64,000 bases of DNA from assembly GCA_964016885.1 (NCBI GenBank), contig OZ024740.1, positions 9,486,001 to 9,550,000 on the forward strand, read 5' to 3'. The notes under the pieces were generated by a model that saw only the letters and a list, made by a program, of their open reading frames with translations, ran no database searches and was not told the DNA's origin. This stretch comes from Eledone cirrhosa. Lineage: Eukaryota. Within the stretch, counting starts at the first letter, position 1; every line of letters starts with the position of its first letter. The position numbers and the translations under genes were made by a program. Of this stretch, positions 12,344 to 49,682 are shown piece by piece.

Positions 12344-12603
12344 AACATTCATAACCTTCCAGCTTATCCTCCAATTCCCTAATTCTATCGTATTCTCAAA
12401 CAAAAAAAAAAAACAAAAAACAACAAAATCCTTTCCATTCTACTTCTTATAATTTACTTTAAATATATATATCATGCTACCTCGAAAGTCAAAAATCCCG
12501 CTCATACACCCCTCACCCACCATTTTCTTCACGAGGGGTTGCGGTCAGCCACTCTCTCTCTCTCTCTCTCCCCCTTCCCACTCTCTCTCTCTCTCTCTTA
12601 GCT

Positions 12604-12634
<31 letters not shown>

Positions 12635-12910: not shown

Positions 12911-12956
12911 AGCTACCCCACATCCCTCCCACCCGCCCCCACACACCACCATTCTT

Positions 12957-13087: not shown

Positions 13088-13122
13088 GCCTATACTATCG
13101 CTTGCACGGTTGCCTTCGATAT

Positions 13123-16718: not shown

Positions 16719-16740
16719 GATGATGATGATGATGATGATG
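16719..16740 (+). repeat. (GAT)7G 3' tail of copy 1
   Basis: Read directly; the last ATG is shared with the satellite ATGTCAG. Confidence 0.95.
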
Positions 16741-19700
16741 TCAGTTCCTATTGGTATATCAATTTCGATTGGTATGTCAGTTTCGATTAGTATATCAGTT
16801 TGTATTGGTATGTCAGTTTCTATTGGTATGTCAGTTTCTATTGGTATATCAGTTACTATTGGTATGTCAGTTTCGATTGGTATGTCAGTTTCGATTGTTA
16901 TGTAAATTTCGATTGGTATGTCACTTTCGATTGGTATATCAGTTTCGAATGGTATGTCTGTTTCGATTGGTGTGTCAGTTTCTATTGGTATCTCAATTTC
17001 TATTGGTATATCAGTTTTGATTGTTATATCAGTTACGATTTGTATGTCAGTTTCGATTGGTATATCAGTTTCGATGGTTATGTCAGTTTTGATTGTATAT
17101 CAGTTTCGAATGGTATGTCAGTTTTGATTGGTATATCTGTTTCAATTGGTCTGTCAGTTTCGATTGGTATGTCAGTTTCTATTGGTATATCAGTTTCGAT
17201 TGGTATGTCAGTTTCGATTAGTATATCAGTTTCTGTTGGCATATCAGTTTCGATTGGTATATCAGTTCCTATTGGTATGTCAGTTTCGATTGGTATGTCA
17301 GTTTCAATTGGTATGTCAGTTTCTATTGGTATGTCAGTTTCGATTGTTATGTGAGTTTCTATTGGTATATCAGTTTCGATTGAATATCAGTTTCGATTAG
17401 TATGGCAGTTTCTATTGGTATGTCAGTCTCGATTAGTATATCAGTTTCTATTGGTATGTCAGTTTCTATTGGTATATCAGTTTCGATTGGTATATCAGTT
17501 TCGATTGGTATATCAGTTTCGATTGGTACGTCAGTTTCTATTGGTATATCAGTTTCGGTTGGAATGTCAGTTTCGATTGGTATGTCAATTTCGATTGGTA
17601 TGTCACTTTCGATTGGTATATCAGTTTCTATTGGTATGTCAGTTTCTATTAGTATGTCAGTTTCTAATGGTATGTCAGTTTCGACTGGTATGTTAGTCCT
17701 CGATACGTATGTCAGTTTCGATTGGTATGTCAGTTTCGATTGGTATATCAGTTTCGAATGGTATGTCAGTTTCGATTGGTATGTCTGTTTTGATTAGTAT
17801 ATCAGTTTCAAATGGTATGTCAGTCTCGATTAGTATGTCCGTTTCGATTGGCATATCAGTTTCGATTCGTATGTCAGTTTCTATTGGTATATCAGTTTCC
17901 ATTGGTATATCAGTTTCGATTTGTATATCAGTTTCGATTTGTATGTCAGTTTCTATTGGTATGTCAGTTTCAATTCGTATATCAGTTTCGATTGGTATGT
18001 CAGTTTTATTGGTATGTCAATTTCGATTGGTATATCAGTTTCGCCTGGAATGTCAGTTCCGATTGGTATATCAGTTTCTGTTGGTATGTCAGTTTTGATT
18101 GGTATGTCAATTTCGATTGGTATGTCACTTTCGATTGGTATATCAGTTTCGAATGGTATGTCAGTTTCGATTGGTATGTCAGTTTCCATTGGTATATAAA
18201 TTTCCATTGGTATATCAGTTTCTATTGGTATGTCAGCTTCTATTGGTATATCAATTTTGATTGGTATGTCAGTTTCGATGGGTATATCATTTTCAATTTT
18301 TATGTCAGTTTCGATTGTTATGTCAGTTTCGATTAGTATGTCACTTTCAATGTGTATATCAGTTTCTATTGGTATGTCAGTTTTGATTGGTATGTCAGTT
18401 TCTATTGGTATGTCAGTTTCTATTGATATATCAGTTTCGATTAGTATATCAGTTTCTATTTGTATGTCAGTTCCTATTGGTATATCAATTTCGATTGGTA
18501 TGTCAGTTTCGATTGGTATATCAGTTTGTATTGGTATGTCAGTTTCTATTGGTATGTCAGTTTCTATTGGTATATCAGTTTCGATTGTTATGTCAGTTTC
18601 GATTGGTATATCAGTTTCTATTGATATATATGTTTCGATTAGTATATCAGTTTCTATTTATATGTCAGTTCCTATTGGTATATCAATTTCGATTGGTATG
18701 TCAGTTTCGATTGGTATATCAGTTTGTATTGGTATGTCAGTTTCTATTGGTATGTCAGTTTCTATTGGTATATCAGTTACTATTGGTATGTCAGTTTCGA
18801 TTGGTATGTCAGTTTCGATTGTTATGTAAATTTCGATTGGTATGTCACTTTCGATTGGTATATCAGTTTCGAATGGTATGTCTGTTTCGATTGGTGTGTC
18901 AGTTTCTATTGGTATCTCAATTTCTATTGGTATATCAGTTTTGATTGTTATATCAGTTACGATTTGTATGTCAGTTTCGATTGGTATATCAGTTTCGATT
19001 GTTATGTCAGTTTTGATTGTATATCAGTTTCGAATGGTATGTCAGTTTTGATTGGTATATCTGTTTCAATTGGTATGTCAGTTTCGATTGGTATGTCAGT
19101 TTCGATTGTTATATCAGTTTCGATTGGTATGTCAGTTTCTATTGGTATATCAGTTTCGATTGGTATGTCAGTTTCGATTAGTATATCAGTTTCTGTTGGC
19201 ATATCAGTTTCGATTGGTATATCAGTTCCTATTGGTATGTCAGTTTCGATTGGTATGTCAGTTTCAATTGGTATGTCAGTTTCTATTGGTATGTCAGTTT
19301 CGATTGTTATGTGAGTTTCTATTGGTATATCAGTTTCGATTGAATATCAGTTTCGATTAGTATGGCAGTTTCTATTGGTATGTCAGTCTCGATTAGTATA
19401 TCAGTTTCTATTGGTATGTCAGTTTCTATTGGTATATCAGTTTCGATTGGTATATCAGTTTCGATTGGTATATCAGTTTCGATGGGTACGTCAGTTTCTA
19501 TTGGTATATCAGTTTCGGTTGGAATGTCAGTTTCGATTGGTATGTCAATTTCTATTGGTATGTCACTTTCGATTGGTATATCAGTTTCTATTGGTATGTC
19601 AGTTTCTATTAGTATGTCAGTTTCTAATGGTATGTCAGTTTCGACTGGTATGTTAGTCCTCGATACGTATGTCAGTTTCTATTGGTATATCAGTTTCGAT

Positions 19701-20349
19701 TGGTATGTCAGATTCGATTGGTATGTCAGTTTCTATTGGTATATCAGTTTCTATTGGTATGTCAGTTTCTACTGGTATGTCAGTTTCGATTGGTAAGTCA
19801 GTTTCGATTGGTATATCAATTTCAATTCGTATGTCAGTTTCGATTGGTATATCAGTTTCTATTTGTATGTCAGTTTCGATTGGTATCTCAGTTTTGCTTG
19901 GTATATCAGTTTCTATTGGTTTGTCTGTTTATATTGGTATATCAGTTTCTATTGGTAAGTCAGTTTATATTGGTATATCAGTTTCTATTGGTATGTCAGT
20001 TTCTATTGGAATGTTAGTCCTCGATTTGCATGTCAGTTTCTGTTGGTATATCAGTTTCAATTGGTATGTCAGTTTTGATTAGCATATCAGTTTCTATTTG
20101 TATGTCAGTTTCTATTGGTATATCAGTTTCCATTGGTATATCAGTTTAGATTGGTATGTCAGTTTCTATTGGTACATCAGTTTCGATTAGTATGTTAGTT
20201 TCTATTGGTATGTCAGTTTCAAATTAGTATATCTGTTTCTATTGGTATGTCATTTTCGATTGGTATTTTAGTCCTTGATTTGTATGTCAGTTTCTATTGG
20301 TATATAAGTTTCGATTGGTATGCCAGTTTCGATTGGTATGTCAGTTTCT

Positions 20350-22550
20350 ATTGGTATATCAGTTTCTATTGGTATGTCAGTTTTTATTGGTATGTCAGTT
20401 TCGATTGGTATATCAGACTCGATTAGTATGTCAGTTTCTATTGGTATATCAGTTTCCATTGGTATATCAGTTTCGACTGGTATATCAGTTTCTATTGGTA
20501 TATCAGTTTCTATTGGTATGTCAGTTTCTATTCGTATGTCAGTTTCTATTGGTATATCAGTTTCGATTGGTATGTCAGTTTCGATTGGTATGTCAGTTTC
20601 GATTGGTATATCAGTTACGATTGTTATGTTAGTTTCTATTGGTATGTCAGTTTCTATTGGTATATCAGTTTCAATTGGTGTATCAGTTTCGATTGGTATG
20701 TCAGTTTCAATTTGTATATCAGTTTCGATTGGTATGTCAGTTTTATTGGTATGTCAATTTCGATTGGTATATCAGTTTTGGTTGGTATGTGAGTTTCAAT
20801 TGGTATGTGTAGTTTCTATTGGCATACGAGTTTCGATTGGTATGTCAGTTTCTATTGGTATGTCAGTTTCGATTAGTATATCAGTTTCTATTGGTATGTC
20901 AGTTTCGATTGGTATGTTAGTCCTTGATTCGTATGTCAGTTTCTATTGGTATATTAGTATCGATTGGTATGTCAGTTTCGATTAGTATATCATTTTCTGT
21001 TTGTATGTCAGTTTCTATTGGTATATCAGTTTCTATTGGTATATCAGTTTCGATTGATATGTCAGTTTCGATTGGTTTGTCAGTTTCGATTAGTATATCA
21101 GTTTCGAATGGTATGTCAGTTTGGATTGGTATATCAGTTTAGATTAGTATATCAGTCTCGATTGGTATGTCAGTTTCGATTGGCATATCAGTTTTGATTC
21201 GTATGTCAGTTTCTATTGGTATATCAGTTTCCATTAGTATATCAGTTTCGATTAGAATGTCAGTTTCTATTGGTATGTCAGCTTCGATTAGTATGTTAGT
21301 CCTCGATTGGTATGTCAGTTTCAAATGGTATATCAGTTTCGACTGGTATATCAGTTTCTATTGGTATATCAGTTTCTATTGGTATGTCAGTTACTATTGG
21401 TATGTCAGTTTCGATTGGTATATCAGATTCGATTAATATGTCAGTTTCTATTGGATTATCAGTTTCCATTGGTATATCAGTTTCGACTGGTATATCAGTT
21501 TCTATTGATATATCAGTTTCTATTGGTATGTCAGTTTCTATTCGGATGTCAGTTTCTATTGGTATATCAGTTTCGATTGGTATGTCAGTTTCGATTGGTA
21601 TGTCAGTTTCGATTGGTATATCAGTTACGATTGTTATTTTAGTTTCTATCGGTATGTCAGTTTCTATTGGTATATCAGTTTCAATTGGTGTATCAGTTTC
21701 GATTGGTATGTCAGTTTCAATTTATATATCAGTTTCGATTGGTATGTCAGTTTTATTGGTATGTCAATTTCGATTGGTATATCAGTTTCGGTTGGTATGT
21801 GAGTTTCAATTGGTACGTGTAGTTTCTATTTGTATACGAGTTTCGATTGGTATGTCAGTTTCTATTGGTATGTCAGTTTCGATTGGTATATCAGTTTCTA
21901 TTGGTATGTCAGTTTCGATTGGTATGTTAGTCCTTGATTCGTATGTCAGTTTCTATTGGTATATTAGTATCGATTGGTATGTCAGTTTCGATTAGTATAT
22001 CAGTTTCTGTTTGTATGTCAGTTTCTATTGGTATATCAGTTTCCATTGGTATATCAGTTTCGATTGATATGTCAGTTTCGATTGGTATGTCAGTTTCGAT
22101 TAGTATATCAGTTTCGAATGGTATGTCAGTTTGGATTGGTATATCAGTTTAGATTAGTATATCAGTCTCGATTGGTATGTCAGTTTCGATTGGCATATCG
22201 GTTTTGATTCGTATGTCAGTTTCTATTAGTATATCAGTTTCCATTAGTATATCAGTTTCGATTAGAATGTCAGTTTCTATTGGTATGTCAGCTTCGATTA
22301 GTATGTTAGTCCTCGATTTGTATGTCAGTTTCAAATGGTATATCAGTTTCGACTGGTATATCAGTTTCTATTGGTATATCAGTTTCTATTGGTATGTCAG
22401 TTTCTATTGGTATGTCAGTTTCGATTGGTATATCAGATTCGATTAATATGTCAGTTGCTATTGGTATATCAGTTTCCATTGGTATATCAGTTTCGACTGG
22501 TATATCAGTTTCTATTGGTATATCAGTTTCTATTGGTATGTCAGTTTCTA
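20350..22550. repeat. 1010-bp higher-order tandem repeat (~2.2 units; ends approximate)
   Basis: Variant strings recur at offset 1010 (20924/21934, 21139/22149, 21167/22177). Confidence 0.82.
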
Positions 22551-25500
22551 TTGGTATGTCAGTTTATATTGGTATATCAGTTTCGATTGGTATATCAGTT
22601 TCGATTAGTATGTCAGCTTCTATTGGTATGTCAGTTTCGATTGGTATGTTATTCCTCGATTTGTATGTCAGTTTCTGTTGGTATATAAGTTTCGATTGTT
22701 ATGTCAATTTCGATTGGTATATCAGTTTCTATTGGTATATCAGTTTCGATTGGTATGTCAGTTTTGATTGGTATGTCAGTTTCTATTGGTATATCAGTTT
22801 CCATTGGTATATCAGTTTCGATTGTTATGTCAATTTCGATTGGTATGTCAGTTTCTATTGGTATATCAGTTTCCATTGGTATATCAGTTTAGATCGGTAT
22901 GTCAGTTTCTATTGGTATATCCGTTTCGATTAGTATGTTAGTTTCTATTGGTATGTCAGTTTCGATTAGTATATCAGTTTCTATTGGTATGTCAGTTTCG
23001 ATTGGTATGTTAGTTCTCGATTTGTATGTCAGTTTCTATTGGTATATCAGTTTCCATTGGTATATCAGTTTTGACTGGTATATCAGTTTCTATTGGTATA
23101 TTAGTTTCTATTGGTATGTCAGTTTCTATTCGTATCTCAGTTTCTATTGGTATATCAGTTTCGATTGGTATGTCAGTTTCGATTGGTATGTCAGTTTCGA
23201 TTGGTATATCAGTTTCGATTGTTATGTTAGTTTCTATTGGTATGTCAGTTTCTATTGGTATATCAGTTTCAATTGGTGTATCAGTTTCGATTGGTATGTC
23301 AGTTTCAATTTGTATCTCAGTTTCGATTGGTATGTCAGTTTTATTGTTATGTCAATTTCGATTGGTATATGAGTTTCGGTTGGTATGTCAGTTTCAATTG
23401 ATATGTGTAGTTTCTATTGGTATACGAGTTTCGATAGGTATGTCAGTTTCTATTGGTATGTCAGTTTCGATTAGTATATCAGTTTCTATTGGTATGTCAG
23501 TTTCGATTGGTATGTTAGTACTCGATTTGTATGTTAGTTTGTATTGGTATATTAGAATCGATTGGTATGTCAGTTTCGATTAGTATATCAGTTTCTATTT
23601 GTATGTCAGTGTCTATTGGTATATCAATTTCTATTGGTATATCAGTTTCGATTGATATGTCAGTTTCGATTGGTATCTCAGTTTCGATTAGTATATCAGT
23701 TTCGAATGGTATGTCAGTTTGGATTGGTATATCAGTTTCGAATAGTATATCAGTCTCGATTGGTATGTCAGCTTCGATTAGTATGATAGTCCTCGATTTG
23801 TATGTCAGTTTCAAATGGTATATCAGTTTCAACTGGTATATCAGTTTCTAATGGTATATCAGTTTCTATTGGTAAGTCAGTTTCTATTGGTATGTCAGTT
23901 TCGATTGGTATATCAGATTCGATTAATATGTCAGTTTCTATTTGTATATCAGTTTCCATTGGTATATCAGTTTCGACTGGTATATCAGTTTCTATTGGTA
24001 TATCAGTTTCAATTGGTATATCAGTTTCGATTAGTATGTCTGTTTATATTGGTATGTCAGTTTCGATTGGTATATCAGTTTCGATTGTTATGTCAATTTC
24101 GATTGGTATATCAGTTTCCATTGGTATATCAGTTTAGATTTGTATGTCAGTTTCTATTGGTATAAATGTTTCGATTAGTATCTCAGTTTCTATTTGTATC
24201 TCAGTTTCGATTAGTATGTCAGTTTCTATTGGTATAAATGTTTCGATTAGCATGTTAGTTTCTATTGGTATGTCAGTTTCGTTTATTATATCAGTTTCTA
24301 ATGGTATGTCAGTTTCGATTGGTATGTTAGTCCTCGATTTGTATGTCAGTTTCTATTGGTAAATCAGTTTCGATTGGTATGTCAGTTTCGATTAGTATGT
24401 CAGTTTCTATTGGTATGTCAGTTTCTATTGGTATATCAGTTTTGATTGGTATATAAGTTTCTATTGGTATGTCAGTTTTGATTGGTATGTCACTTTCGAT
24501 TGGTATATCAGTTTCGATTGTTATGTTAGTTTCTATTGGTATGTCAGTTTCTATTGGTATATCAGTTTCAATTGGTGTATCAGTTTCGATTGGTATGTCA
24601 ATTTCAATTTGTATATCAGTTTCGATTGGTATGTCAGTTCTATTGGTATGTCAATTTCGATTGGTATATCAGTTTAGGTTGGTATGTCAGTTTCGATTGG
24701 TATGTCAGTTTCTATTGGTATACGAGTTTCGATTGGTATATCAGTTTTGATTGGTATGTCAGTTTTGATTGGTATGTCAGATTCGATTGGTATATCAGTT
24801 ACTATTGATATGTCAGTTTAGATTGGGATGTCAGTTTCGATTGGTATTTCAGCTTCTATTGGTAAATCAGTTTCGATTGGTATGTCAGTTTCGATTAGTA
24901 TATCAGTTTCTACTGGTATGTGAGTTTCTATTGGTAAATCAGTTTCGATTGGTATAACAGTTTCGATTGGAAAGTCAGTTTTGATTGGTATGTAAATTTC
25001 GATTTGTATGTCAGTTTGGATTGGTATATCAGTTTCAATTGGTATGTCAGTTTCGATTGGTATATCAGTTTCCATTGATATATCAGTTTCGATTGGTATG
25101 TCAGTTTGTATTGGTATATCAGTTTCTATTGGTATGTCAGTTTCTATTGGTATATCAGTTTCGATTGGTATATCAGTTTCGATTGGCATGTCAGTTTCGA
25201 TTGGTAAGTCAGTTTCGATTGGTATAACAATTTCGATTGTTATATCAGTTTCTATTGGTATATCAGTTTCGATTCATATATCAGTTTTCGATTAGTATGT
25301 CAGTGTCTATTGGTATGTCAGTTTTGACTGGTACATTAGTCCTCGATTTGTATGTCAGTTTCTATTGGTATATCAGTATTGATTGGTATGTCAGTTTCGA
25401 TTAGTATATCAGTTTCATAAGGTATGTCAGTTTTGATTGTTATGTCAGTTTGGATTGGTATATCAGTTTCGATTAGTATGTCAGTTTCTATTGGTATATC

Positions 25501-28500
25501 GGTTTCCATTCGTATATTAGTTTCAATTGGTATGTCAGTTTCTATTGGTATATCAGTTTCTATTGGTATGTCATTTTCGATTGGTATATCAGTTTCGATT
25601 GATATATCAGTTTCGATTAGTATGTCCGTTTCTATTGGTATGTCAGTTTCGATTAGTATATCAGTTTTGATTGGTATGTCAGTTTGGATTGGTATATCAG
25701 TTTGGATTAGTATGTCAATTTCTATTGGTATATCGGTTAACATTGGTATATCAGTTTTGCTTGGTATGTCAGTTTCGATTGGTATGTCAATTTCTATTGA
25801 TATATCAGTTTAGATTGGTAGGTCAGTTTCTAGGGGTATGTCAGTTTCAATTAGTATATCAGTTTCTATTGGTATGTCAGTTTCGATTGGTATGTCAGTT
25901 TCTATTGGTATGTCAGTTTCAATTGGTATATCAGGTTTGAATGGTATGTCAGTGTCGATTGGTATGTCAGTTTGGATTGGTATATCAGTTTGGATTAGTA
26001 TGTCAATTTCTATTGGTATATCGGTTTCCATTGGTTAATCAGTTTTTATTGGTATGTCAGTTTCTATTGGTATGTCAGTTTCTATTGTTATGTGAGTTTC
26101 TATTTGTATATCAGTTTCGATTGATATATCAGTTTTGATTAGTATGGCAGTTTCTATTGGTATGTCAATTTCGATTAGTATATCAGTTTCTATTGCTATG
26201 TCAGTTTCTATTGGTATATCATTTTCGATTGGTATATCAGTTTCGATTGGTATGTCAGTTTGGATTGGTATATCAGTTTAGATTAGTATATCAGTCTCGA
26301 TTGGTATGTCAGTTTGGATTGGTATATCAGTTTAGATTAGTATATCAGTTTCGATTGGTATGTCAGTTTCGATTGGCATATCAGTTTTGATTTGTATGTC
26401 AGTTTCTATTAGTATATCAGTTTCCATTAGTATATCAGTTTCGATTAGAATGTCAGTTTCTATTGGTATGTCAGCTTCGATTAGTATGTTAGTCCTCGAT
26501 TTGTATGTCAGTTTCAAATGGTATATCAGTTTCGACTGGTATATCAGTTTCTATTGGTATATCAGTTTCTATTGGTATGTCAGTTTCGATTGGTATATCA
26601 GATTCGATTAATATGTCAGTTGCTATTGGTATATCAGTTTCCATTGGTATATCAGTTTCGACTGGTATATCAGTTTCTATTGGTATATCAGTTTCTATTG
26701 GTATGTCAGTTTCTATTGGTATGTCAGTTTATATTGGTATATCAGTTTCGATTGGTATATCAGTTTCGATTAGTATGTCAGCTTCTATTGGTATGTCAGT
26801 TTCGATTGGTATGTTATTCCTCGATTTGTATGTCAGTTTCTGTTGGTATATCAGTTTCGATTGTTATGTCAATTTCGATTGGTATATCAGTTTCTATTGG
26901 TATATCAGTTTCGATTGATATGTCAGTTTTGATTGGTATGTCAGTTTCTATTGGTATATCAATTTCGATTGGTATATCAGTTTCGATTGTTATGTCAATT
27001 TCGATTGGTATGTCAGTTTCTATTGGTATATCAGTTTCCATTGGTATATCAGTTTAGATCGGTATGTCAGTTTCTATTGTTATATCAGTTTCGATTAGTA
27101 TGTTAGTTTCTATTGGTATGTCAGTTTCGATTAGTATATCAGTTTCTATTGGTATGTCAGTTTCGATTGGTATGTTAGTTCTTGATTTGTATGTCAGTTT
27201 CTATTGGTATATCAGTTTCCATTGGTATATCAGTTTCGACTGGTATATCAGTTTCTATTGGTATATCAGTTTCTATTGGTATGTCAGTTTCTATTCGTAT
27301 GTCAGTTTCTATTGGTATATCAGTTTCGATTGGTATGTCAGTTTCGATTGGTATGTCAGTTTCGATTGGTATATCAGTTTCGATTGTTATGTTAGTTTCT
27401 ATTGGTATGTCAGTTTCTATTGGTATATCAGTTTCAATTGGTGTATCAGTTTCGATTGGTATGTCAGTTTCAATTTGCATCTCAGTTTCGATTGGTATGT
27501 CAGTTTTATTGTTATGTCAATTTCGATTGGTATATCAGTTTCGGTTGGTATGACAGTTTCAATTGATATGTGTAGTTTCTATTGGTATACGAGTTTCGAT
27601 TGGTATGTCAGTTTCTATTGGTATGTCAGTTTCGATTAGTATATCAGTTTCTATTGGTATGTCAGTTTCGATTGGTATGTTAGTACTCGATTTGTATGTT
27701 AGTTTGTATTGGTATATTAGAATCGATTGGTATGTCAGTTTCGATTAGTATATCAGTTTCTATTTGTATGTCAGTGTCTATTGGTATATCAGTTTCTATT
27801 GGTATATCAGTTTCGATTGATATGTCAGTTTCGATTGGTATCTCAGTTTCGATTAGTATATCAGTTTCGAATGGTATGTCAGTTTGGATTGGTATATCAG
27901 TTTCAAATAGTATATCAGTCTCGATTGGTATGTCAGCTTCGATTAGTATGTTAGTCCTCGATTTGTATGTCAGTTTCAAATGGTATATCAGTTTCAACTG
28001 GTATATCAGTTTCTAATGGTATCTCAGTTTCTATTGGTAAGTCAGTTTCTATTGGTATGTCAGTTTCGATTGGTATATCAGATTCGATTAATATGTCAGT
28101 TTCTATTTGTATATCAGTTTCCATTGGTATATCAGTTTCGACTGGTATATCAGTTTCTATTGGTATATCAGTTTCAATTGGTATATCAGTTTCGATTCGT
28201 ATGTCTGTTTATATTGGTATGTCAGTTTCGATTGGTATATCAGTTTCCATTGGTATATCAGTTTAGATTTGTATGTCAGTTTCTATTGGTATAAATGTTT
28301 CGATTAGTATGTCAGTTTCTATTTGTATCTCAGTTTCGATTAGTATGTCAGTTTCTATTGGTATAAATGTTTCGATTAGTATGTTAGTTTCTATTGGTAT
28401 GTCAGTTTCGTTTATTATATCAGTTTCTAATGGTATGTCAGTTTCTATTGGTATGTTAGTCCTCGATTTGTATGTCAGTTTCTATTGGTAAATCAGTTTC

Positions 28501-35175: not shown

Positions 35176-38100
35176 TTAGTTTCGATTGGTATGTCAGTTT
35201 CAATTTGTATATCAGTTTCGATTGGTATGTCAGTTTTATTGGTATGTCAATTTCGATTGGTATATCAGTTTCGGTTGGTATGTCAGTTTCAATTGGTATG
35301 TGTAGTTTCTATTGGCATACGAGTTTCGATTCGTATGTCAGTTTATATTGGTATGTCAGTTTCGATTAGTATATCAGTTTCTATTGGTATGTCAGTTTCG
35401 ATTGGTATGTTAGTCCTCGATTTGTATGTCAGTTTCTATTGGTATATTAGTATCGATTGGTATGTCAGTTTCGATTAGTATATCAGTTTCTACTTGTATG
35501 TCAGTTTCTGTTGGTATATCAGTTTCTATTGGTATATCAGTTTCGATTGATATGTCAGTTTCGATTGGTATGTCAGTTTCAAATAGTATATCAGTTTCGA
35601 ATGGTATGGCAGTTTGGATTGGTATATCAGTTTCGATTGGTATGTCAGTTTCGATTTGTATGTCAGTTTCTGTTGGTATATCAGTTTCAATTGGTATGTC
35701 AGTTTTGATTAGCATATCAGTTTCTATTTGTATGTCAGTTTCTATTGGTATATCAGTTTCCATTGGTATGTCAGTTTCTATTGGTATATCAGTTTCGATT
35801 AGTATGTTAGTTGCTATTGTTATGTCAGTTTCGATTAGTATATCAGTTACTATTGGTATGTCAGTTTCGATTGGTATGTTAGTCCTCGATTTGTATGTCA
35901 GTTTCTATTGGTATATCAGTTTCGATTGGTATGTCAGTTTCGATTGGTATGTCAGTTTCTATTGGTATATCAGTTTCTATTGGTATGTCAGTTTCTATTG
36001 GTATGTCAGTTTCGATTGTTATATCAGATTCGATTAGTATGTCAGTTTCTATTGGTATATCAGTTTCCATTGGTATATCAGTTTCGATTGGTATATCAGT
36101 TTCTATTGGTATATCAGTTTCTATTGGTATGTCAGTTTCTATTGGTATGTCAGTTTCTATTGGTATATCAGTTTCGATTGGTATATCAGTTTCGATTGGT
36201 ATGTCAGTTTTGATCGGTATGTCAGTTTCGATTGGTATGTCAGTTTCGATTGTTATGTTAGTTTCTATTGGTATGTCAGTTTCAATTGGTGTATCAGTTT
36301 CGATTGGTATGTCAGTTTCAATTTGTATATCAGTTTCGATTGGTATGTCAGTTTCTATTGGTATGTCAGCTTCTATTGGTATGTTAGTCCTCGATTTGTA
36401 TGTCAGTTTCTGTTGGTATATCAGTTTCAATTGGTATGTCAGTTTTGATGAGCATATCAGTTTCTATTTGTATGTCAGTTTCTATTGGTATATCAGTTTC
36501 GATTGGTATATCAGTTTCGATTGTTATGTCAATTTCGATTGGTGTGTCAGTTTCTATTGGTATATCAGTTTCCATTGGTATAGCAGTTTAGATTGGTATG
36601 TCAGTTTCTATTGGTATATCAGTTTCTATTTGTATCTCAGTTTCGATTGGTATGTCAGTGTCGATTGGTATGTCAGTTTCTATTGGTATGTCAGTTTCTA
36701 TTGGTATGTCAGTTTAGATTGGTATATCAGATTCGATTAGTATATCAGTTTCTATTGGTATATCAGTTTGCATTGGTATATCAGTTTCGATTGGCATATC
36801 AGTTTCTATTGGTATATCAGTTTCTATTGGTATATCAGTTTCTATTGGTATGTCAGTTTCGATTGGTATGTCAGTTTCGATTGGTATGTCAGTTTTATTG
36901 GTATGTCAATTTCGATTGGTATATCAGTTTCAATTTGTATATCAGTTTCGATTGGTATGTCAGTTTTAATTGGTATGTGTAGTTTCTATTGGTATACAAG
37001 TTTCGATTGGTATGTCAGTTTCTATTGGTATGTCAGTTTCGATTAGTATATCAGTTTCTATTGGTATGTCAGTTTCAATTAGTATGTTAGTCCTCGATTT
37101 GTATGTCAGTTTCTATTGGTATATTAGTATCGATTGGTACATCAGTTTCGATTAGTATGTCAGTTTCAATTTGTATATCAGTTTCGATTGGTATGTCAGT
37201 TTTATTGTTATGTCAATTTCAATTGGTATATCAGTTTCGGTTGGTATGTCAGTTTCAATTGGTATGTGTAGTTTCTATTGGTATACGAGTTTCGATTGGT
37301 ATGTCAGTTTCTATTGGTATGTCAGTTTCGATTAGTATATCAGTTTCTATTGGTATGTCAGTTTCGATTAGTATGTTAGTCCTCGATTTGTATGTCAGTT
37401 TCTATTGGTATATTAGTATCGATTGGTACGTCAGTTTCGATTAGTATGTCAGTTTCAATTTTTATATCAGTTTCGATTGGTATGTCAGTTTTATTGGTAT
37501 GTCAATTTCGATTGGTATGTCAATTTCTATTGGTATGTCAGTTTCGATTAGTATATCAGTTTCGATTGGTATATCAGTTTCGATCGTTATGTCAATGTCG
37601 ATTGGTATGTCAGTTTCTATTGGTATATCAGTTTCCATTGGTATATCAGTTTAGATTGGTATGTCAGTTTCTATTGGTATATCAGTTTCTATTTGTATCT
37701 CAGTTTCGATTTGTATGTCAGTTTCTATTGGTATGTCAGTTTCGAATGGTATGTCAGTTTCGATTGGTATGTCAGTTTCTATTGGTATTTCAGTTTCTAT
37801 TGGTATGTCAGTTTCTATTGGTATGTCAGTTTCGATTGGTATATCAGATTCGATTAGTATGTCAATTTCTATTGGTATATCTGTTACATTGGTATATCAG
37901 TTTCGATTGGTATATCAGTTTCTATTGGTATATCAGTTTCTATTGGTATGTCAGTTTCTATTGGTATGTCAGTTTCTATTGGTATGCTAGTTTCGATTGG
38001 TATGTCAGTTTCGATTGGTATGTCAGTTTCGATTGGTATATCAGTTTCGAGTGTCATGTTAGTTTCGATTGGTATGTCAGTTTCAATTTGTATATCAGTT

Positions 38101-39212
38101 TCGATTGGTATGTCAGTTTTATTGGTATGTGTAGTTTCTATTGGCATACGAGTTTCGATTGGTATGTCAGTTTCTATTGGTATGTCAGTTTCGATTAGTA
38201 TATCAGTTTCTATTGGTATGACAGTTTCGATTGGTATGTTAGTCCTCGATTTGTATTTCAGTTTCTATTGGTATATTAGTATCGATTGTTATGTCAGTTT
38301 CGATTAGTATATCAGTTTCTAGTTGTATGTCGGTTTCTATTGGTATATCAGTTTCTATTGGTATATCAGTTTCGATTGATATGTCAGTTTCGATTGGTAT
38401 GTCAGTTCCGATTATTATATCAGTTTCGAATGGTATGTCAGTTTGGATTGGTATATCCGTTTCGATTGGTATGTCAGTTTTGATTTGTATGTCAGTTTCT
38501 GTTGGTATATCAGTTTCAATTGGTATGTCAGTTTTGATTAGCATATCAGTTTCTATTTGTATGTCAGTTTCTATTGGTATATCAGTTTCCATTGGTATAT
38601 CAGTTTAGATTGGTATGTCAGTTTCTATTAGTATGTCAGTTTCTGTTCGTATCTCAATTTCGATTGGTATGTCAGTTTCTATTGGTATATCAGTTTCGAT
38701 TAGTATGTTAGTTCCTATTGGTATGTCAGTTTCAATTAGTATATCAGTTACTATTGGTATGTCAGTTTCGATTGGTATGTTAGTCCTCGATTTGTATGTC
38801 AGTTTCTATTGGTATATCAGTTTCGATTGGTATGTCAGTTTCGATTGGTATGTCAGTTTCTATTGGTATATCAGTTTCTATTGGTATGTCAGTTTCTATT
38901 GGTATGTCAGTTTCGATTGTTATATCAGATTCGATTAGTATGTCAGTTTCTATTGGTATATCAGTTGCAATTGGTGTATCAGTTTCGATTGGTACGTCAG
39001 TTTCAATTTGTATATCAGTTTTGATTGGTATGTCAGTATTATTGGTATGTCAATTTCGATTGGTATATCAGTTTCGATGGGTATATTAGTTTCTATTGGT
39101 ATGTCAGTTTCTATTGGTATATCAGTTTCGATTGGTATATCAGATTCGATTAGTACGTCAGTTTCTATTGGTATATCAGTTTCCATTGGTATATCAGTTT
39201 CGATTGGTATAT
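35173..39212. repeat. 18-bp tandem satellite, block 3
   Basis: Same monomer and orientation. Confidence 0.98.
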
Positions 39213-40369
39213 TAAATGCAAAGTATGGGTGCATAAAAGTATGGGTGCATAAAAGATGTAGTGGGATCACAGGTAAGCTAACTAAGAACATAGATTTTAC
39301 ATGTGGCCGGTGCTCTGGTGCAATAAGTAGCAGCAAGTGCCCACAAACTACTAGCTCTTTCAATTGCGCAGAGGGTTCTATAGAAATAGTGGACAGCTTC
39401 CGTTACCTGGGCGATAAAATCAGCAGTGGGGGAGGGTGCTCTGAAAGTACTGTAGCTAGAGTCAGAACTGGTTGGAAAAAGTTCAGAGAGCTTATACCAC
39501 TATTAGCTGCTAAAGCGTTCTCACTAAAAATGAAAGGCAGGTTGTACGATGCCTGCATACGAACAGCAATGCTGCACGGCAGTGAGACCTGGGCATTGTG
39601 TGCAGAGGATATACGCAGACTAGAGAGGAACGAAGCTTGCATGCTCCGCTGGATGTGTAACAGTAATATACGTGAACGGCAAAGCATAAACGAACTAAGG
39701 AAAAAATTAGAGATAAGAGGGATCAGATGTTGTTTACTCGAGAGAAGGCTACGTTGGTATGGACACGTGATGCGCATGAAAGTCGATAGCTGTATAACAA
39801 AGTGCAGGGCAATAAAGATAGACGGTAGTCACGGAATAGGCAGACCTAGGAAAACCTGGGACGAGCTGATAAACTCCGACATCACACACTTACACCTCTC
39901 CAAGACAATGTCACTGGACCGAGACCTTTGGCGGTACTCAGTAACAGAGAAGACCCGCCTTACCTAAATATATAGTAAAACCTACTCCAGCCAGTAGGCA
40001 TCTCTAACAAAATACACCCCGTCCCACCACCCCCGCCCCCACCCCATCCACACCACCCCGTTCTATGTAAAGTTATGTTGGTGCCGCGCCATCGAGGCCG
40101 AAACAAATGAGATCGTGTAGGTGTCACGACAAAAAAACACACAGTCCACGCTGTAATGTGGCCGTGTAGGCAACACGGTAAAAACCTGCCAGACCCACAC
40201 TGTAAATGTGGTTGGATTTAGGAAGGGCATCCAACTGTAGAAAACCTGCCAGACAGTCCTATGCGAGCAAGACAATCACTCTTGCCTCAAGTGGGACTAC
40301 CCCCGTCCAAACCCATGCAAGCGTGGAACACGGACGTTAAACGTTGATGATGATGATGATGATGATGAT
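39213..40369 (+). mobile_element. Severely 5'-truncated RTE (copy 3)
   Basis: Starts inside the PHD finger (equivalent to 15630 of copy 1), has a 16-bp duplication near its 5' end, a full 3' UTR and (GAT)8 at 40346-40369. Confidence 0.95.
39236..39967 (+). pseudogene. C-terminal RTE ORF fragment (half PHD + thumb/C-terminus)
   Basis: KVWVHKRC...FRYLG...GSETWAL...RLRWYGHV...RLT*, nearly identical to copy 2. Confidence 0.85.
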
Positions 40370-43300
40370 ATCAGTTTCTATTGGTATATCAGTTTCTATT
40401 GGTATGTCAGTTTCTATTCGTATGTCAGTTTCTATTGGTATATCAGTTTCGATTGTTATGTTAGTTTCTATTGGTATGTCAGTTTCTATTGGTATATCGG
40501 TTTCAATTGGTGTATCAGTTTCGATTGGTATGTCAGTTTCAATTTGTATATCAGTTTCGATTGGTATGGCAGTTTCTATTGGTATGTCAGTTTCTATTGG
40601 TATGTTAGTCCTCGATTTGTATGTCAGTTTCTGTTGGTATATCAGTTTCTATTTGTATGTCAGTTTCTATTGGTATATCAGTTTCGATTGGTATATCAGA
40701 TTCGATTGGTATATCAGTTTCGATTGGTATATCAGTTTCGATTGTTATGTCAATTTCGATTGGTATGTCAGTTTCTATTGGTTTATCAGTTTCCATTGGT
40801 ATATCAGTTTAGATTGGTATGTCAGTTTCTATTGGTATATCAGTTTCTATTTGTATCTCAGTTTCAATTGCTATGTCAGTTTCCATTGGTATATCAATTT
40901 CTATTGGTATGTCAGTTTCTATTGGCATGTCAGTTTCGATTGGTATATCAGATTCGATTAGTATATCAGTTTCTATTGGTATATCAGTTTGCATTGATAT
41001 ATCAGTTTCGATTGGTATGTCAGTTTTGATTAGCATATCATTTTCTATTTGTATGTCTGTTTCTATTGGTATATCAGTTTCAATTGGTATATCAGTTTCG
41101 ATTGTTATTTCAATTTCGATTGGTATGTCAGTTTCTATTGGTATAACAGTTTCCATTGGTATATCAGTTTCTATTGGTATGTCAGTTTCTATTGGTATAT
41201 CAGTTTCTGTTCGCATCTCAGTTTCGATTGACATGTCACTTTCTATTGGTATATCAGTTTCGATTAGTATGTTAGTTTCTATTGGTATGTCAGTTTCGAT
41301 TAGTATATCAGTTTCTATTGGTATGTCAGTTTCGATTGGTATGTTAGTCCTCGATTTGTATGTCAGTTTCTATTGGTATGTCAGGTTCGATTGGTATGTG
41401 AGTTTCTATTCGTATATCAGTTTCTATTGGTATGTCAGTTTCTATTGGTATGTCAGTTTCTATTGGTATATCAGTTTCGATTGGTATATCAGTTTCGATT
41501 GGTATGTCAGTTTTGATCGGTATGTCAGTTTCGATTGGTATATTAGTTTCGATTGGTATGTCAGTTTCTATTGGTATATCAGTTTCCATTGGTATATCAG
41601 TTTAGATTGGTATGTCAGTTTCTATTGGTATATTAGTTTCTATTGGTATGTCAGTTTCTATTGGTATATCAGTTTCAATTGGTGTATCAGTTTCGATTGG
41701 TATGTCAGTTTCAATTTGTATATCAGTTTCGATTGGTATGTCAGTTTCTATTGGTATGCCAGTTTCTATTGGTATGTTAGTCCTCGATTTGTATGTCGGT
41801 TTCTGTTGGTATATCAGTTTCAATTGGTATGTCAGTTTTGATCAGCATATCAGTTTCTATTTGTATGTCAGTTTCTATTGGTATATCAGTTTCGATTGGT
41901 ATATCAGTTTCGATTGTTATGTCAATTTCGATTGGTATGTCAGTTTCTATTGGTATATCAGTTTCCAATTGTATATCAGTTTAGATTGGTATGTCAGTTT
42001 CTATTGGTATATCAGTTTCTATTTGTATCTCAGTTTCGATTGGTATGTCAGTTTCGATTGGTATATCAGTTTCGGTTGGTATGTCAGTTTCGATTGGTAT
42101 ATCAGTTTGCATTGGTATATCAGTTTCGATTGGTATATCAGTTTCGGTTGGTATGTCAGTTTCGATTGGTATGTCAGTTTCGATTGGCATATCAGTTTCG
42201 ATTGTTATGTTAGTTTCGATTGGTATGTCAGTTTCAATTTGTATATCAGTTTCGATTGGTATGTCAGTTTTATTGGTATGTCAATTTTGATTGGTATATC
42301 AGTTTCGATTGGTATGTCAGTTTCTATTGGTATGTCAGTTTCGATTACTATATCAGTTTCTATTGGTATGTCAGTTTCGATTGGTATGTTAGTCCTCGAT
42401 TTGTATGTCAGTTTCTATTAGTATATCAGTTTCGATTGATATGTCAGTTTCGATTGGTATGTCAGTTTCGATTAGTATATCAGTTTCGAATGGTATGTCA
42501 GTTTGGATTGGTATATCAGTTTCGATTGGTATGTCAGTTTCGATTTGTATGTCAGTTTCTGTTGGTATATCAGTTTCAATTGGTATGTCAGTTTTGATTA
42601 GCATATCAGTTTCTATTTTTATGTCTGTTTCAATTGGTATATCAGTTTCGATTGTTATGTCAATTTCGATTGGTATGTTAGTTTCTATTGGTATATCAGT
42701 TTCCATTGGTATATCAGTTTAGATTGGTATGTCAGTTTCTATTGGTATATCCGTTTCTGTTCGTATCTCAGTTTCGATTGTTATGTCAGTTTCTATTGGT
42801 ATATCAGTTTCGATTAGTATGTTAGTTTCTATTGGTATGTCAGTTTCGATTAGTATATCAGTTTCTATTGGTATGTCAGTTTCGATTGGTATGTTAGTCC
42901 TCGATTTGTATGTCAGTTTCCATTGGTATATCAGTTTCGATTGGTATGTCAGTTTCTATTGGTATGTCAGTTTCTATTGGTATATCAGTTTCGATTGGTA
43001 TATCAGTTTCGATTGGTATGTCAGTTTTGATCGGTATGTCCGTTTCGATTGGTATATTAGTTTCGATTGGTATGTCAGTTTCTATTGGTATATCAGTTTC
43101 CATTGGTATATCATTTTAGATTGGTATGTCAGTTTCTATTGGTATATCAGTTTCTATTTGTATCTCAGTTTCGATTGGTATGTCAGTTTCTATTGGTATA
43201 TCAATTTCTATTTGTATGTCAGTTTCTATTGGTATGTCAGTTTCGATTGGTATATCAGATTCGATTAGTATATCAGTTTCTATTGGTATATCAGTTTGCA

Positions 43301-46300
43301 TTGGTATATCAGTTTCGATTGGTATATCAGTTTCTATTGGTATATCAGTTTCTATTGGTATGTCAGTTTCTATTGGTATGTCAGTTTCAATTGGTATATC
43401 AGATTCGATTAGTATGTCATTTTCTATTGGTATATCAGTTTCCATTGGTATATCAGTTTCGAGTGGTATATCAGTTTCTATTGGTATAGCAGTTTCTATT
43501 GGTATGTCAGTTTCTATTGGTATGTCAGTTTCTATTGGTATATCAGTTTCGATTGGTATATCAGTTTCGATTGGTATGTCAGTTTTATCGGTATGTCAAT
43601 TTTGATTGGTATATCAGTTTCGGTTGGTATGTCAGTTTCAATTGGTATCTGTAGTTTCTATTGGTATACCAGTTTCGATTGGTATGTCAGTTTCTATTGG
43701 TATGTCAGTTTCGATTAGTATATCAGTTTCTATTGGTGTGTCAGTTTCGATTGGTATGTTAGTCCTCGATTTGTATGTCAGTTTCTATTGGTATATTAGT
43801 ATCGATTGGTACGTCAGTTTCAATTAGTATGTCAGTTTCAATTTCTATATCAGTTTCGATTGGTATGTCAGTTTTATTGGTATGTCAATTTCGATTGGTA
43901 TATCAGTTTCGGTTGGTATATCAGTTTCAATTGGTATGTGTAGTTTCTATTGATATACGAGTTTCGATTGGTATGTCAGTTTCTATTGGTATGTCAGTTT
44001 CGATTAGTATATCAGTTTCTATTGGTATGTCAGTTTTATTGGTATGTCAATTTCGATTGGTATATCAGTTTTGTTTGGTATGTCAGTTTCAATTGGTATG
44101 TGTAGTTTCTATTGATATACGAGTTTCGAATGGTATGTCAGTTTCTATTGGTATGTCAGTTTCGATTAGTATGTCAGTTTCAATTTGTATATAAGTTTCG
44201 ATTGGTATGTCAGTTTTATTGGTATGTCAATTTCGATTGGTATATCAGTTTCAATTGGTATGTCAGTTTCGATTTGTATGTCAGTTTCTGTTGGTATATC
44301 AGTTTCAATTGGTATGTCAGTTTTGATTAGCATATCAGTTTCTATTTGTATGTCAATTTCGATTGGTATGTTAGTTTCTATTGGTATATCAGTTTCGATT
44401 GGTATATCAGTTTAGATTGGTATGTCAGTTTCTATTGTTATATCAGTTTCTGTTCGTATCTCAGTTTCGATTGGTATGTCAGTTTCTATTGGTATATCAG
44501 TTTCGATTAGTATGTTAGTTTCTATTGGTATGTCAGTTTCGATTAGTATATCAGTTTCTATTGGTATGTCAGTTTCGATTGGTACGTTAGTCCACGATTT
44601 TTATGTCAGTTTCCATTGGTATATGAGTTTCGATTGGTATGTCAGTTTCTATTGGTATGTCAGTTTCTATTGGTATATCAGTTTTGATTGGTATATCAGT
44701 TTCGATTGGTATGTCAGTTTTGATCGGTATGTCCATTTCGATTGGTATATTAGTTTCGATTGGTATGTCAGTTTCTACTGGTATATCAGTTTCCATTGGT
44801 ATGTCAGTTTTGATTGGTATATCAGTTTCTATTGGTATATCAGTTTCTATTGGTATGTCAGTTTCAATTGGTATATCAGATCCGATTAGTATGTCATTTT
44901 CTATTGGTATATCAGTTTCCATTGGTATATCAGTTTCGAGTGGTATGTCAATTTCTATTGGTATGTCAGTTTCTATTGGTATATCAGTTTCTATCGGTAT
45001 ATCAGTTTCTATTGGTATGTCAGTTTCTATTGGTATGTCAGTTTCTATTGGTATATCAGTTTCGATTGGTATATCAGTTTCGATTGGTATGTCAGTTTCA
45101 ATTGGTATGTGTAGTTTCTATTGTTATACGAGTTTCGATTGGTATGTCAGTTTCTATTGGTATGTCAGTTTTGATTAGTATATCAGTTTCTATTGGTATG
45201 TCAGTTTCTATTTGTATATAAGTTTCGATTGGCATGTCAGTTTTATTGGTATGTCAGTTTCGATTGGTATGTCAGTTTCTATTGGTATACGAGTTTCGAT
45301 TGGTATATCAGTTTCGATTGGTATGTCAGTTTTGATTGGTATGTCAGTTTCGATTGGTATATCAGATACTATTGATATGTCAGTTTCGATTGGGATGTCA
45401 GTTTCGATTGGTATGTCAGTTTCTATTGGTATATCAGTTTCGATTAGTATGTTAGTTTCTATTGGTATGTCAGTTTCGATTAGTATATCAGTTTCTATTG
45501 GTATGTTAGTTTCGACTGGTATGTTAGTCCTCGATTTGTATGTCAGTTTCCATTGGTATATTAGTTTTGATTGGTATGTTGTTTCGATTGGTATGTCAAT
45601 TTCTATTGGTATATCAGTTTCTATTGGTATGTCAGTTTCTATTGGTATGGCAGTTTCGATTGGTATATCAGATTCGATTAGTATGTCAGTTTCTATTGGT
45701 ATATCAGTTTCCATTGGTATATCAGTTTCGATTGGTATATCAGTTTCTATTGGTATATCAGTTTCTATTGGTATGTCAGTTTCTATTGGTATGTCAGTCT
45801 CTATTGTTATATCAGTTTCGATTGGTATATCAGTTTCGATTGGTATGTCAGTTTTGATCGCAATGTCAGTTTCGATTGGTATATCAGTTTCCATTGTTAT
45901 GTTAGTTTCTATTGGTATGTCAGTTTCTATTGGTATATCAGTTTCAATTGGTGTATCAGTTTCGATTGGTATGTCAGTTTCAATTTGTATATCAGTTTCG
46001 ATTGGTATGTCAGTTTCTATTGGTATGTCAGTTTCTATTGGTATGTTAGTCCTCGATTTGTATGTCAGTTTCTGTTGGTATATCAGTTTCAATTGGTATG
46101 TCAGTTTTGATTAGCATATCAGTTTCTATTTGTATGTCAGTTTCTATTGGTATATCAGTTTCGATTGGTATATCAGTTTCCAATGGTATATCAGTTTAGA
46201 TTGGTATGTCAGTTTCTATTGGTATATCAGTTTCCAATGGTATATCAGTTTAGATTGGTATGTCAGTTTCTATTGGTATATCAGTTTCTATTTGTATCTC

Positions 46301-48893
46301 AGTTTCGATTGGTATGTCAGTTTCTATTGGTATATCAATTTCTATTGGTATGTCAGTTTCTACTGGTATGTCAGTTTCGATTTGTATATCAGATTCGATT
46401 AGTATATCAGTTTCTATTGGTATATCAGTTTGCATTGGTATATCAGTTTCGATTGGTATATCAGTTTCGATTGGTATGTCAGTTTCGATTGGTATGTCAG
46501 TTTCGATTGGCATATCAGTTTCGATTGTCATGTTAGTTTCGATTGGTATGTCAGTTTCAATTTGTATATCAGTTTCGATTGGTATGTGTAGTTTCTATTG
46601 GTATACGAGTTTCGATTGGTATGTCAGTTTCTATTGGTATGTCAGTTTCGATTAGTATATCAGTTTCTATTGGTATGTCAGTTTCGATTGGTATGTTAGT
46701 CCTCGATTTGTATGTCAGTTTCTATTGGTATATTAGTATCGATTGGTACGTCAGTTTCAATTAGTATGTCAGTTTCAATTTGTATATCAGTTTCGATTGG
46801 TATGTCAGTTTTATTGGTATGTCAGTTTTGATTGGTATATCAGTTTCGGTTGGTATGTCAGTTTCAATTGGTATGTGTAGTTTCTATTGGTATACGAGTT
46901 TCGATTGGTATGTCAGTTTCTATTGGTATATCAGTTTCGATTAGTATATCAGTTTCTATTGGTATGTCAGTTTCGATTGGTATGTTAGTCCTCGATTTGT
47001 ATGTCAGTTTCCATTGGTATATGAGTTTCGATTGGTATGTCAGTTTCTATTGGTATGTCAGTTTCTATTGGTATATCAGTTTTGATTGGTATATCAGTTT
47101 CGATTGGTATGTCAGTTTTGATCGGTATGTCCATTTCGATTGGTATATTAGTTTCGATTGGTATGTCAGTTTCTATTGGTATATCAGTTTCCATTGGTAT
47201 GTCAGTTTTGATTGGTATATCAGTTTCTATTGGTATATCAGTTTCTATTGGTATGTCAGTTTCAATTGGTATATCAGATCCGATTAGTATGTCATTTTCT
47301 ATTGGTATATCAGTTTCCATTGGTATATCAGTTTCGAGTGGTATGTCAATTTCTATTGGTATGTCAGTTTCTATTGGTATATCAGTTTCTATCGGTATAT
47401 CAGTTTCTATTGGTATGTCAGTTTCTATTGGTATGTCAGTTTCTATTGGTATATCAGTTTCGATTGGTATATCAGTTTCGATTGGTATGTCAGTTTCAAT
47501 TGGTATGTGTAGTTTCTATTGTTATACGAGTTTCGATTGGTATGTCAGTTTCTATTGGTATGTCAGTTTTGATTAGTATATCAGTTTCTATTGGTATGTC
47601 AGTTTCTATTTGTATATAAGTTTCGATTGGCATGTCAGTTTTATTGGTATGTCAGTTTCGATTGGTATGTCAGTTTCTATTGGTATACGAGTTTCGATTG
47701 GTATATCAGTTTCGATTGGTATGTCAGTTTTGATTGGTATGTCAGTTTCGATTGGTATATCAGATACTATTGATATGTCAGTTTCGATTGGGATGTCAGT
47801 TTCGATTGGTATGTCAGTTTCTATTGGTATATCAGTTTCGATTAGTATGTTAGTTTCTATTGGTATGTCAGTTTCGATTAGTATATCAGTTTCTATTGGT
47901 ATGTTAGTTTCGACTGGTATGTTAGTCCTCGATTTGTATGTCAATTTCCATTGGTATATTAGTTTTGATTGGTATGTTGTTTCGATTGGTATGTCAATTT
48001 CTATTGGTATATCAGTTTCTATTGGTATGTCAGTTTCTATTGGTATGGCAGTTTCGATTGGTATATCAGATTCGATTAGTATGTCAGTTTCTATTGGTAT
48101 ATCAGTTTCCATTGGTATATCAGTTTCGATTGGTATATCAGTTTCTATTGGTATATCAGTTTCTATTGGTATGTCAGTTTCTATTGGTATGTCAGTTTCT
48201 ATTGTTATATCAGTTTCGATTGGTATATCAGTTTCGATTGGTATGTCAGTTTTGATCGCTATGTCAGTTTCGATTGGTATATCAGTTTCAATTGGTGTAT
48301 CAGTTTCGATTGGTATGTCAGTTTCAATTTGTATATCAGTTTCGATTGGTATGTCAGTTTCTATTGGTATGTCAGTTTCTATTGGTATGTTAGTCCTCGA
48401 TTTGTATGTCAGTTTCTGTTGGTATATCAGTTTCAATTGGTATGTCAGTTTTGATTAGCATATCAGTTTCTATTTGTATGTCAGTTTCTATTGGTATATC
48501 AGTTTCGATTGGCATATCAGTTTCCAATGGTATATCAGTTTAGATTGGTATGTCAGTTTCTATTGGTATATCAGTTTCCAATGGTATATCAGTTTAGATT
48601 GGTATGTCAGTTTCTATTGGTATATCAGTTTCTATTTGTATCTCAGTTTCGATTGGTATGTCAGTTTCTATTGGTATATCAATTTCTATTGGTATGTCAG
48701 TTTCTACTGGTATGTCTGTTTCGATTGGTATATCAGATTCGATTAGTATATCAGTTTCTATTGGTATATCAGTTTGCATTGGTATATCAGTTTCGATTGG
48801 TATATCAGTTTCGATTGGTATGTCAGTTTCGATTGGTATGTCAGTTTCGATTGGCATATCAGTTTCGATTGTTATGTTAGTTTCGATTGGTAT
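40368..48893. repeat. 18-bp tandem satellite, block 4
   Basis: Same monomer and orientation. Confidence 0.98.
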
Positions 48894-49682
48894 CATCATC
48901 ATCATCATCATCACCGTTTTACGTCCGTTCTTCCACGCTAGCATGGGTTAGACGGGTTGTCCTGTTGTTGGCAGTGTCTGGTCGGCTGACCATGCCTTGC
49001 TCATACAGGAACTGATCTGGCTTGATTTCTACAGCTGGATGCCCTTCCTAACACCAACCTCATTTACAGTGAGTGCTGGGTGCTTTTTCGTGGCGCCTAC
49101 ACGTCCACTTTACAGTGTGGGCTGGGTGCTTTTTTGCCGTGGCACCTCCACGACCACCTTGCGGTGGGGGGGGGGGGGGCATATTGTTTATATACTTCAG
49201 CATGTACCCATGGGAGGTCGGGTACCCTGTATTACTGCGTGACGCCAGAAGTCACGGTCGTGTGTCATTGACTTTGAGAGGTGTAGTTGGGTAAGGTCGG
49301 CTTTTATCACCTCATCCCAAGTCATCTTGGGTCTCCCCACTCCGCGGTTTCCATCAACTTCTAGTGCTCTGCACCTTTTTATGCAGCTGTCATCCTTCAT
49401 ACGCATCACATGTCCATACCAGCGTAACCGCCTCTCCTGCACGCAGCATTTGATTCCTCTTATGCTCAGTCTCTCTCTCAATTCATTTATGCTTTGTCGT
49501 TCACGTATATTACTGTTACACATCCATCGGAGCATGCAGGCTTCGTTTCTCTCTAATCTACGTAGGTCTTCCACCTTCAGCGCCCAGGTCTCACTACCAT
49601 GCAACATCGCTGTTCGGATACACGCATCATACAGTCTGCCTTTCATTCTGAGGGAGAAGCCTTTTGCAGCTAGCAGTGGTAT
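48892..49682 (-). mobile_element. 5'-truncated RTE of a second, diverged subfamily (copy 4), antisense to the others
   Basis: (ATC)7 at 48892-48912 is a (GAT)7 tail on the minus strand. Homologous 3' UTR (GGTTGGTGTTAGGAAGGGCATCC; CCCATGCTAGCGTGG..CGGACGT). TGGTAT at both ends (48888-48893, 49677-49682). Confidence 0.93.
49197..49682 (-). pseudogene. C-terminal RTE ORF fragment, subfamily 2
   Basis: MKGRLYDACIRTAMLHGSETWALKVEDLRRLERNEACMLRWMC...RRLRWYGHVMRM...GRPKMTWDE. Clearly homologous to copies 1-3 but diverged; stop-free. Confidence 0.85.

Follow-up and report, generated by a model that had tools for sequence, protein, structure and literature searches.

Four RTE-like LINE copies join an 18-bp satellite at one monomer phase, which may reflect a weak Tn-TA target preference

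RTE retrotransposons leave a recognizable signature at their target sites, namely a T run that precedes the first duplicated base by approximately 10 nt; in its Bov-B form, 'Tn-TA', the first duplicated base is an A that is preceded by T (Nishiyama and Ohshima 2018, PMC6007223; Nakatsuka and Ohshima 2026, PMC13295347). The target-site passages of these two papers cover plant RTEs and reptile Bov-B; they ascribe to the tail an influence on nicking or priming, and leave the separate roles of T run, TpA step and tail pairing open. In its section on the endonuclease, PMC6007223 further describes a D229Q exchange and a beta-hairpin shorter by two residues in plant RTEs, with aspartate in animal RTEs. 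RTE insertion as such is characterized in the corresponding part of PMC2887409 as not sequence-specific, with duplications of 6-12 bp, and the supplementary listing of PMC5786205 includes RTE families ending in (GAT)n; the eight files searched from the supplement of PMC9115989 held no matching motifs. Here, we describe four RTE-like LINE insertions, E1 to E4, within a window of 64 kb (the whole stretch of DNA that was analysed), all of which join the surrounding satellite at the same phase of its monomer.

As in the published Tn-TA elements, the first target base is an A after T with a T run about 10 nt upstream at E1-E3 and at one relative, L009, and the first target base matches the microsatellite tail. 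Unlike those elements, which were profiled on duplications of at least 10 bp, E1-E4 show target changes of -5 to +6 bp, carry a (GAT)n tail and sit in a satellite, and E4 fits the signature loosely. With the An-RTEs of flowering plants (RTE-1_GM, AdLINE3) and their animal sister group, as portrayed in the pertinent part of PMC5850137, our elements share a single APE-RT frame, a short tandem-repeat tail, D229Q and the hairpin shortened by two residues. E1 differs from them by a PHD-like finger after the reverse transcriptase (RT), by much shorter duplications and by a host that, judging from the type of element, is probably an animal, whereas the endonuclease section of PMC6007223 places D229Q in plant RTEs only. 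The zebrafish L2-clade elements ZfL2-1 and ZfL2-2 resemble E1-E4, in the junction passages of PMC2666801 and PMC4245944, by microhomology at 3' tail and 5' end and by insertions that are blunt, duplicate few target bases or delete a short piece of the target; they belong to another clade, have the two-ORF layout typical of LINEs outside RTE, and are not reported in those passages to follow Tn-TA. Sequence-specific APE LINEs such as TRAS1, R1Bm and Tx1 likewise keep to one phase of the tandem repeat into which they insert, but E1-E4 tolerate varying flanking bases (two of the four sites carry variants), use both strands (two families), have dispersed relatives with varied flanks and possess a hairpin shorter than that of L1. 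Microsatellite-specific families also exist among the sequence-specific APE LINEs, and target-specific LINEs as a class are marked by a long conserved target, a single orientation and copies that stay within that target. Neither this satellite nor RTE insertion locked to one phase turned up in searches of the open-access literature.

The entire window (1..64000, + strand) is one 18-bp satellite with the consensus CGATTGGTATGTCAGTTT, interrupted by the four inserts and structured by kilobase-scale higher-order duplications. We delineated the array with TRF and a phase table that assigned a monomer phase to each satellite base, yielding 2870 full monomers, and took the empty-site bases across each nick from insertion-free sibling repeats that the higher-order duplications provide.

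E1 (12344..16740, + strand) is a long copy with a 5' region of about 850 bp, one open frame, a 3' UTR and a (GAT)7 tail (16719..16740), the final ATG of which is common to the tail and to satellite phase 9-11. Its insertion removed 5 bp and duplicated none; the empty sibling at +6313 shows 774 identical bases to the left and 179 of 180 across the site. E2 (32364..35175, + strand), a 5'-truncated copy with 96.8% identity to E1 and a (GAT)8 tail at 35151-35174, is most simply explained by blunt joining within the variant monomer CGATTGTT^ATGTTAGTTT, which such a join restores and which is present 17 times in the array. In the comparison with its sibling, a 54-bp overlap scores 176/180 and the blunt join 169/180; a 54-bp duplication was set aside, albeit not fully, because it leaves four mismatches whereas the blunt join rebuilds an existing variant monomer. 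E3 (39213..40369, + strand), again 5'-truncated, is 98.6% identical to E2, ends in (GAT)8 at 40346-40369 and is flanked by a 4-bp duplication, ATAT, 2 bp of which are common to the tail (sibling match 176/180). E4 (48892..49676, - strand; tail 48892-48912), the fourth and also 5'-truncated copy, is 77% identical to E1 and has a duplication of up to 6 bp, TGGTAT (48888-48893 and 49677-49682; sibling 178/180), which is also identical to the element sequence at the 5' junction. E1-E3 thus form one family on the + strand and E4 represents a second on the - strand, all with (GAT)7-8 in place of poly(A). Descent of the four inserts from a single insertion was rejected, as their 5' ends and flanks differ and their identity ranges from 77 to 98.6%.

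Several smaller features accompany these copies. The first 23 bases of E1 (12342-12364) recur about 546 bp further in (12888-12910), and the stretch between the repeats, with A, CT, AC and AT runs, may be 5' UTR or captured DNA. Around 16367-16380, E1 lacks 28 bp of E2/E3 that include their stop codon, so that its frame ends a few codons later. Tandem stutters mark the 5' junctions of E3 (16 bp, 39220-39255) and of the relative L022 (about 12 bp), and likely arose by RT slippage during joining.

The open frame of E1 (13081..16380, + strand; 1099 codons stop to stop) comprises an APE endonuclease (about 13345-13998), a reverse transcriptase (about 14935-15537) and, directly after the RT core, a PHD-like C4HC3 finger (about 15583-15714), which is retained in 117 of 121 proteins; a search of the open-access literature yielded no paper evidently about such a finger in this position. 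On the element's own strand, the 5' region contains no second frame of at least 150 codons, that is, no ORF1. A structural model of the endonuclease (pLDDT 80) found its best fold match in the L1 endonuclease 1vyb. Read from a profile alignment to L1 ORF2, the segment spanning the beta-hairpin (YRSGEHT) and the SQH motif (13927..14040) shows both features of the plant-type RTE endonuclease, a hairpin two residues shorter than in L1 and the change of the L1 SDH to SQH (D229Q). Glutamine occupies position 229 in all 114 matched proteins and the seven-residue loop is present in 112 of them, while 7 of the 121 proteins remained unmatched. Among 8000 candidates scored, 1047 protein relatives reached an E value of 1e-50 or better, many with the same three domains, and the APE-RT-finger layout is common in unrelated genomes.

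Layout (a single APE endonuclease and RT frame without ORF1), the short tandem-repeat tail and the endonuclease residues, rather than a tree, point to RTE-like LINEs, and the RT and C-terminal motifs of E1 are ones we take to resemble those of RTEs. The target duplications do not follow RTE habit: E1-E4 show -5, 0, +4 and at most +6 bp against a reported 7-15 bp with a peak at 10-12 bp, and relatives have 7, 6, about 3 bp or none. As these values lie below the RTE range and the assignment draws on layout, tail and endonuclease residues, we use the term 'RTE-like'.

Directly before the tail of E1 lies a stem-loop (16677..16709, + strand) with a fold z of only -1.0 but with compensatory changes in both arms of the stem across 24 3' ends; it may serve as a recognition element for the RT. 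An end composed of this stem-loop, CGGACG-TWAAA and (GAT)n is common to many distant elements (L001-L039). In one run, 19,898 contigs matched the 3' UTR of E1, some of them through related repeats; the 3' UTR is highly multi-copy in the best-matching organism and belongs to a very large, diverse family. Relatives were collected through the shared 3' end, which gave 39 loci. After discarding 13 of these (10 without the upstream 3' motif, two duplicates and one without flank), we kept 26 loci with 27 junctions. Ten of the 26 also match the E1 protein, with a protein identity mostly of 35-58% where it is present.

Rereading the sequence confirmed the four junctions quoted in the original prediction, at 16740, 35175, 40369 and 48893, and the phase table placed the last AT of all four tails at monomer phase 9-10. 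The empty siblings likewise bore out the proposed nick contexts, with bottom-strand CAT^A at E1 and E2 and TAT^A at E3, as well as the replacement of the flanking GG by TA at site 1 and GT at site 2. The probability that all four junctions fall on the AT at phase 9-10 is 3e-5 for uniform insertion, 0.0018 if pairing of at least 2 nt is required, and 0.024 for any AT or 0.045 if agreement on either AT is counted. The phase agreement is real; of the two outcomes named as fatal to it, the phases are not uniform, and they go beyond AT frequency alone only at the borderline (0.024-0.045). The sample of four stands as a count of junctions, yet is effectively three plus one, because E4 belongs to another family.

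It had also been claimed that the GAT within CGATTGG is never used. This is true of the sites but not significant (0/3, p about 0.2). Among 3-nt tail matches on the + strand, GAT at phase 2-4 holds 41% and ATG at phase 9-11 holds 45%, so the former is no better a match than the latter, both being 3 nt long; the G at phase 2 is present in 52% of monomers, and phase 2-4 offers no GAT match to the - strand copy E4. Two readings suit the nick at E4: AT^G with 2 nt paired to the tail, or T^A, which lies at the same TpA step and involves no pairing. Target choice purely by longest pairing was rejected, as pairing of at least 3 nt puts 1.4% of - strand sites at the E4 position. Only 7.4% of monomers lack G at position 7, and the E1 and E2 sites both lie in such rare monomers (two of four sites, p 0.03 post hoc), a hint that insertion may be aided by an A/T-rich P-2.

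On balance, and with some reservation, we favour the explanation that the phase agreement displays the known weak Tn-TA preference of RTEs on a uniform target rather than a satellite-specific enzyme. The + strand of the monomer reads TTT-CGATTGG-T^A and offers this arrangement once per 18 bp, so that a weak genome-wide preference would collapse onto one phase. Tn-TA sites number 2696 on the + strand of the satellite, where phase 9 accounts for 97%, against 12 on the - strand; an upstream TTT accompanies the used AT in 92% of monomers and the unused AT at phase 3 in 0.5%. At E1-E3, TTT occupies P-11 to P-9, T lies at P-1 and A at P1. The T run about 10 nt upstream is thus present in three of the four copies, all three from one satellite context, and A at P1 with T at P-1 is seen directly in the same proportion, with E4 conforming only under the no-pairing reading. 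E4 misses the strict form: read one way, P-1 is a C and the T run shrinks to a TT at P-11 and P-10, which 6.7% of such sites share; read the other way, T^A is in place without a T run. The D229Q exchange and shortened hairpin of E1 and nearly all matched homologs also speak for an RTE preference of this kind, and the duplications, falling short of the reported 7-15 bp, speak against it.

We computed likelihood ratios over an AT-only model, allowing 10-25% of events to be off-motif. For Tn-TA these amounted to 64-98 on E1-E3 and, in the strict form, to 10-16 on all four sites, with the T-run window of P-12 to P-8 chosen with the satellite in view, the papers saying only 'approximately ten'. A relaxed rule, TT at P-11 and P-10 followed by AT, reached 142-242 on all four, but was formulated post hoc. 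Eight relatives had both flanks in view, of which one was a clear case, three fitted loosely and four did not fit or were ambiguous. The clear case, L009, has a 7-bp duplication that starts with A, is preceded by T and has TTTT at P-11 to P-8 (background at most 1.4%). For L003, L010 and L022, one ambiguous reading is a nearly blunt join at AT that a T run precedes by 6-13 nt, while L001, L012, L034 and L038 showed no fit to Tn-TA or were ambiguous. A blind search for duplications of at least 7 bp in L001-L031 returned mostly chance matches and missed L009.

Starting from the observed junctions, phases, empty sites, domain layout and endonuclease residues, insertion can be pictured as target-primed, with a weak bipartite nick preference. 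The element protein would bind the 3' stem-loop of its RNA, and the endonuclease would nick across from T^A on the other strand, at a distance of one turn from a T run that it may recognize. The freed end, CAT-3' or AT-3', would form 0-3 base pairs with the RNA's (GAU)n tail and prime cDNA synthesis. The second strand would be cut or trimmed nearby, giving rise to the target changes listed above, and the 5' end would be joined with 1-6 nt of microhomology. E4, from the other family, may have used the same TpA step with a looser match. LINEs with short-repeat tails are known to join bluntly, to use microhomology at the 3' end and to delete small parts of the target, as the junction data in PMC2666801 illustrate.

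In another account, nothing matters beyond a generic nick at TpA, tail pairing at AT, or both, and the four sites agree partly by luck, the monomer being poor in TA and AT steps. Its consensus has a single TA, at phase 8/9, and all four sites can be read as cuts of this TpA on either strand; agreement by chance would have a probability of 0.08 for any T^A and 0.16 for T^AT, next to the 0.024-0.045 for AT only. The steps CT^ATT (phase 2/3) and AT^AT (phase 10/11) account for 40% of TA sites on the + strand. E1-E3 favour Tn-TA about 9-10-fold over T^AT and 40-50-fold over T^A, and the T run recurs at L009, so we regard a generic nick as unlikely, if a serious contender.

The original prediction had instead derived a consensus, RYAT^R, and the related proposal that the endonuclease reads this short, near-palindromic motif (Y^ATRY in element sense), once per strand at the same AT, strikes us as doubtful. 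It fits all four sites, covers E4 without a second rule, places 99% of its sites at the used AT on both strands and attains likelihood ratios of 9-12 on E1-E3 and 21-31 on all four. The fit arises, however, because the motif was fitted to those same sites: in a homogeneous satellite the bases around one phase are confounded, so the four sites amount to two independent contexts, one per strand, and RYAT^R is the overlap of the + strand context (three sites) with that of E4. Among the (GAT)n-tailed relatives, AT-R-Y occurred at 8 of 27 junctions against a null mean of 8.0 (P 0.58), tails stopped about equally often at each of the three phases (12/9/6, p 0.37), and the clear duplication at L009 starts ATTT rather than ATRY. 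As the relatives are distant families, this null speaks against a lineage-wide RYAT^R and not against a family-specific one. The consensus in the form given thus found no support, while the broader suggestion of a short nick preference that is not satellite-specific, combined with a few bases of primer/tail pairing, was supported.

We consider quite improbable a bolder synthesis, a satellite-tropic LINE with a bipartite target read by structure. In it, an animal RTE lineage with a PHD finger would seek out satellite chromatin and cut the two strands at what is essentially a single TpA, fixed by a T run at a distance of one turn, so that near-blunt insertions arise in phase and in either orientation. 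Satellite tropism proper, with chromatin (for example, via the PHD-like finger), a bound protein or DNA shape exposing one phase, would accommodate the finding that about 55 kb of satellite contain four young insertions from two families, as well as the widely kept C4HC3 finger of E1, but is very improbable given the size and diversity of the family revealed by its 3' UTR matches, the protein layout shared with unrelated genomes, the mostly ordinary AT-rich flanks of relatives and the two sites in non-GG variants, the rarity of which argues, post hoc, against adaptation to the consensus.

Should the Tn-TA explanation be correct, the signature would also apply to an RTE-like lineage that is widespread, ends in (GAT)n and makes almost no duplications, so that surveys requiring duplications of at least 10 bp would miss it, and the D229Q/short-hairpin endonuclease would probably not be confined to plants. 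A fixed satellite phase need not mean a satellite-specific enzyme. The 18-mer and its natural variants, in turn, form a ready substrate for separating the contributions of T run, TpA step and tail pairing.

Searches beyond these relatives gave a single chance match to E1 in Rfam, generic endonuclease clusters only in an atlas search and no match in a plasmid collection. In a viral collection, two of three sequence patterns returned no locus and the other returned two, neither of which has the 3' motif; a protein profile returned none that was confirmed. Four element ends (L034, L036, L038 and L039) lie on contigs of prokaryotic genome bins, which are probably contaminated with animal DNA; a search of four contaminated bins gave no additional copies. 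Within the window itself, a near-perfect satellite duplication occupies 55299-64000 (offset 5606, 2856 shared 120-mers) and further ones occur at offsets 2398 and 6313, reflecting either recent array expansion or a feature of the assembly.
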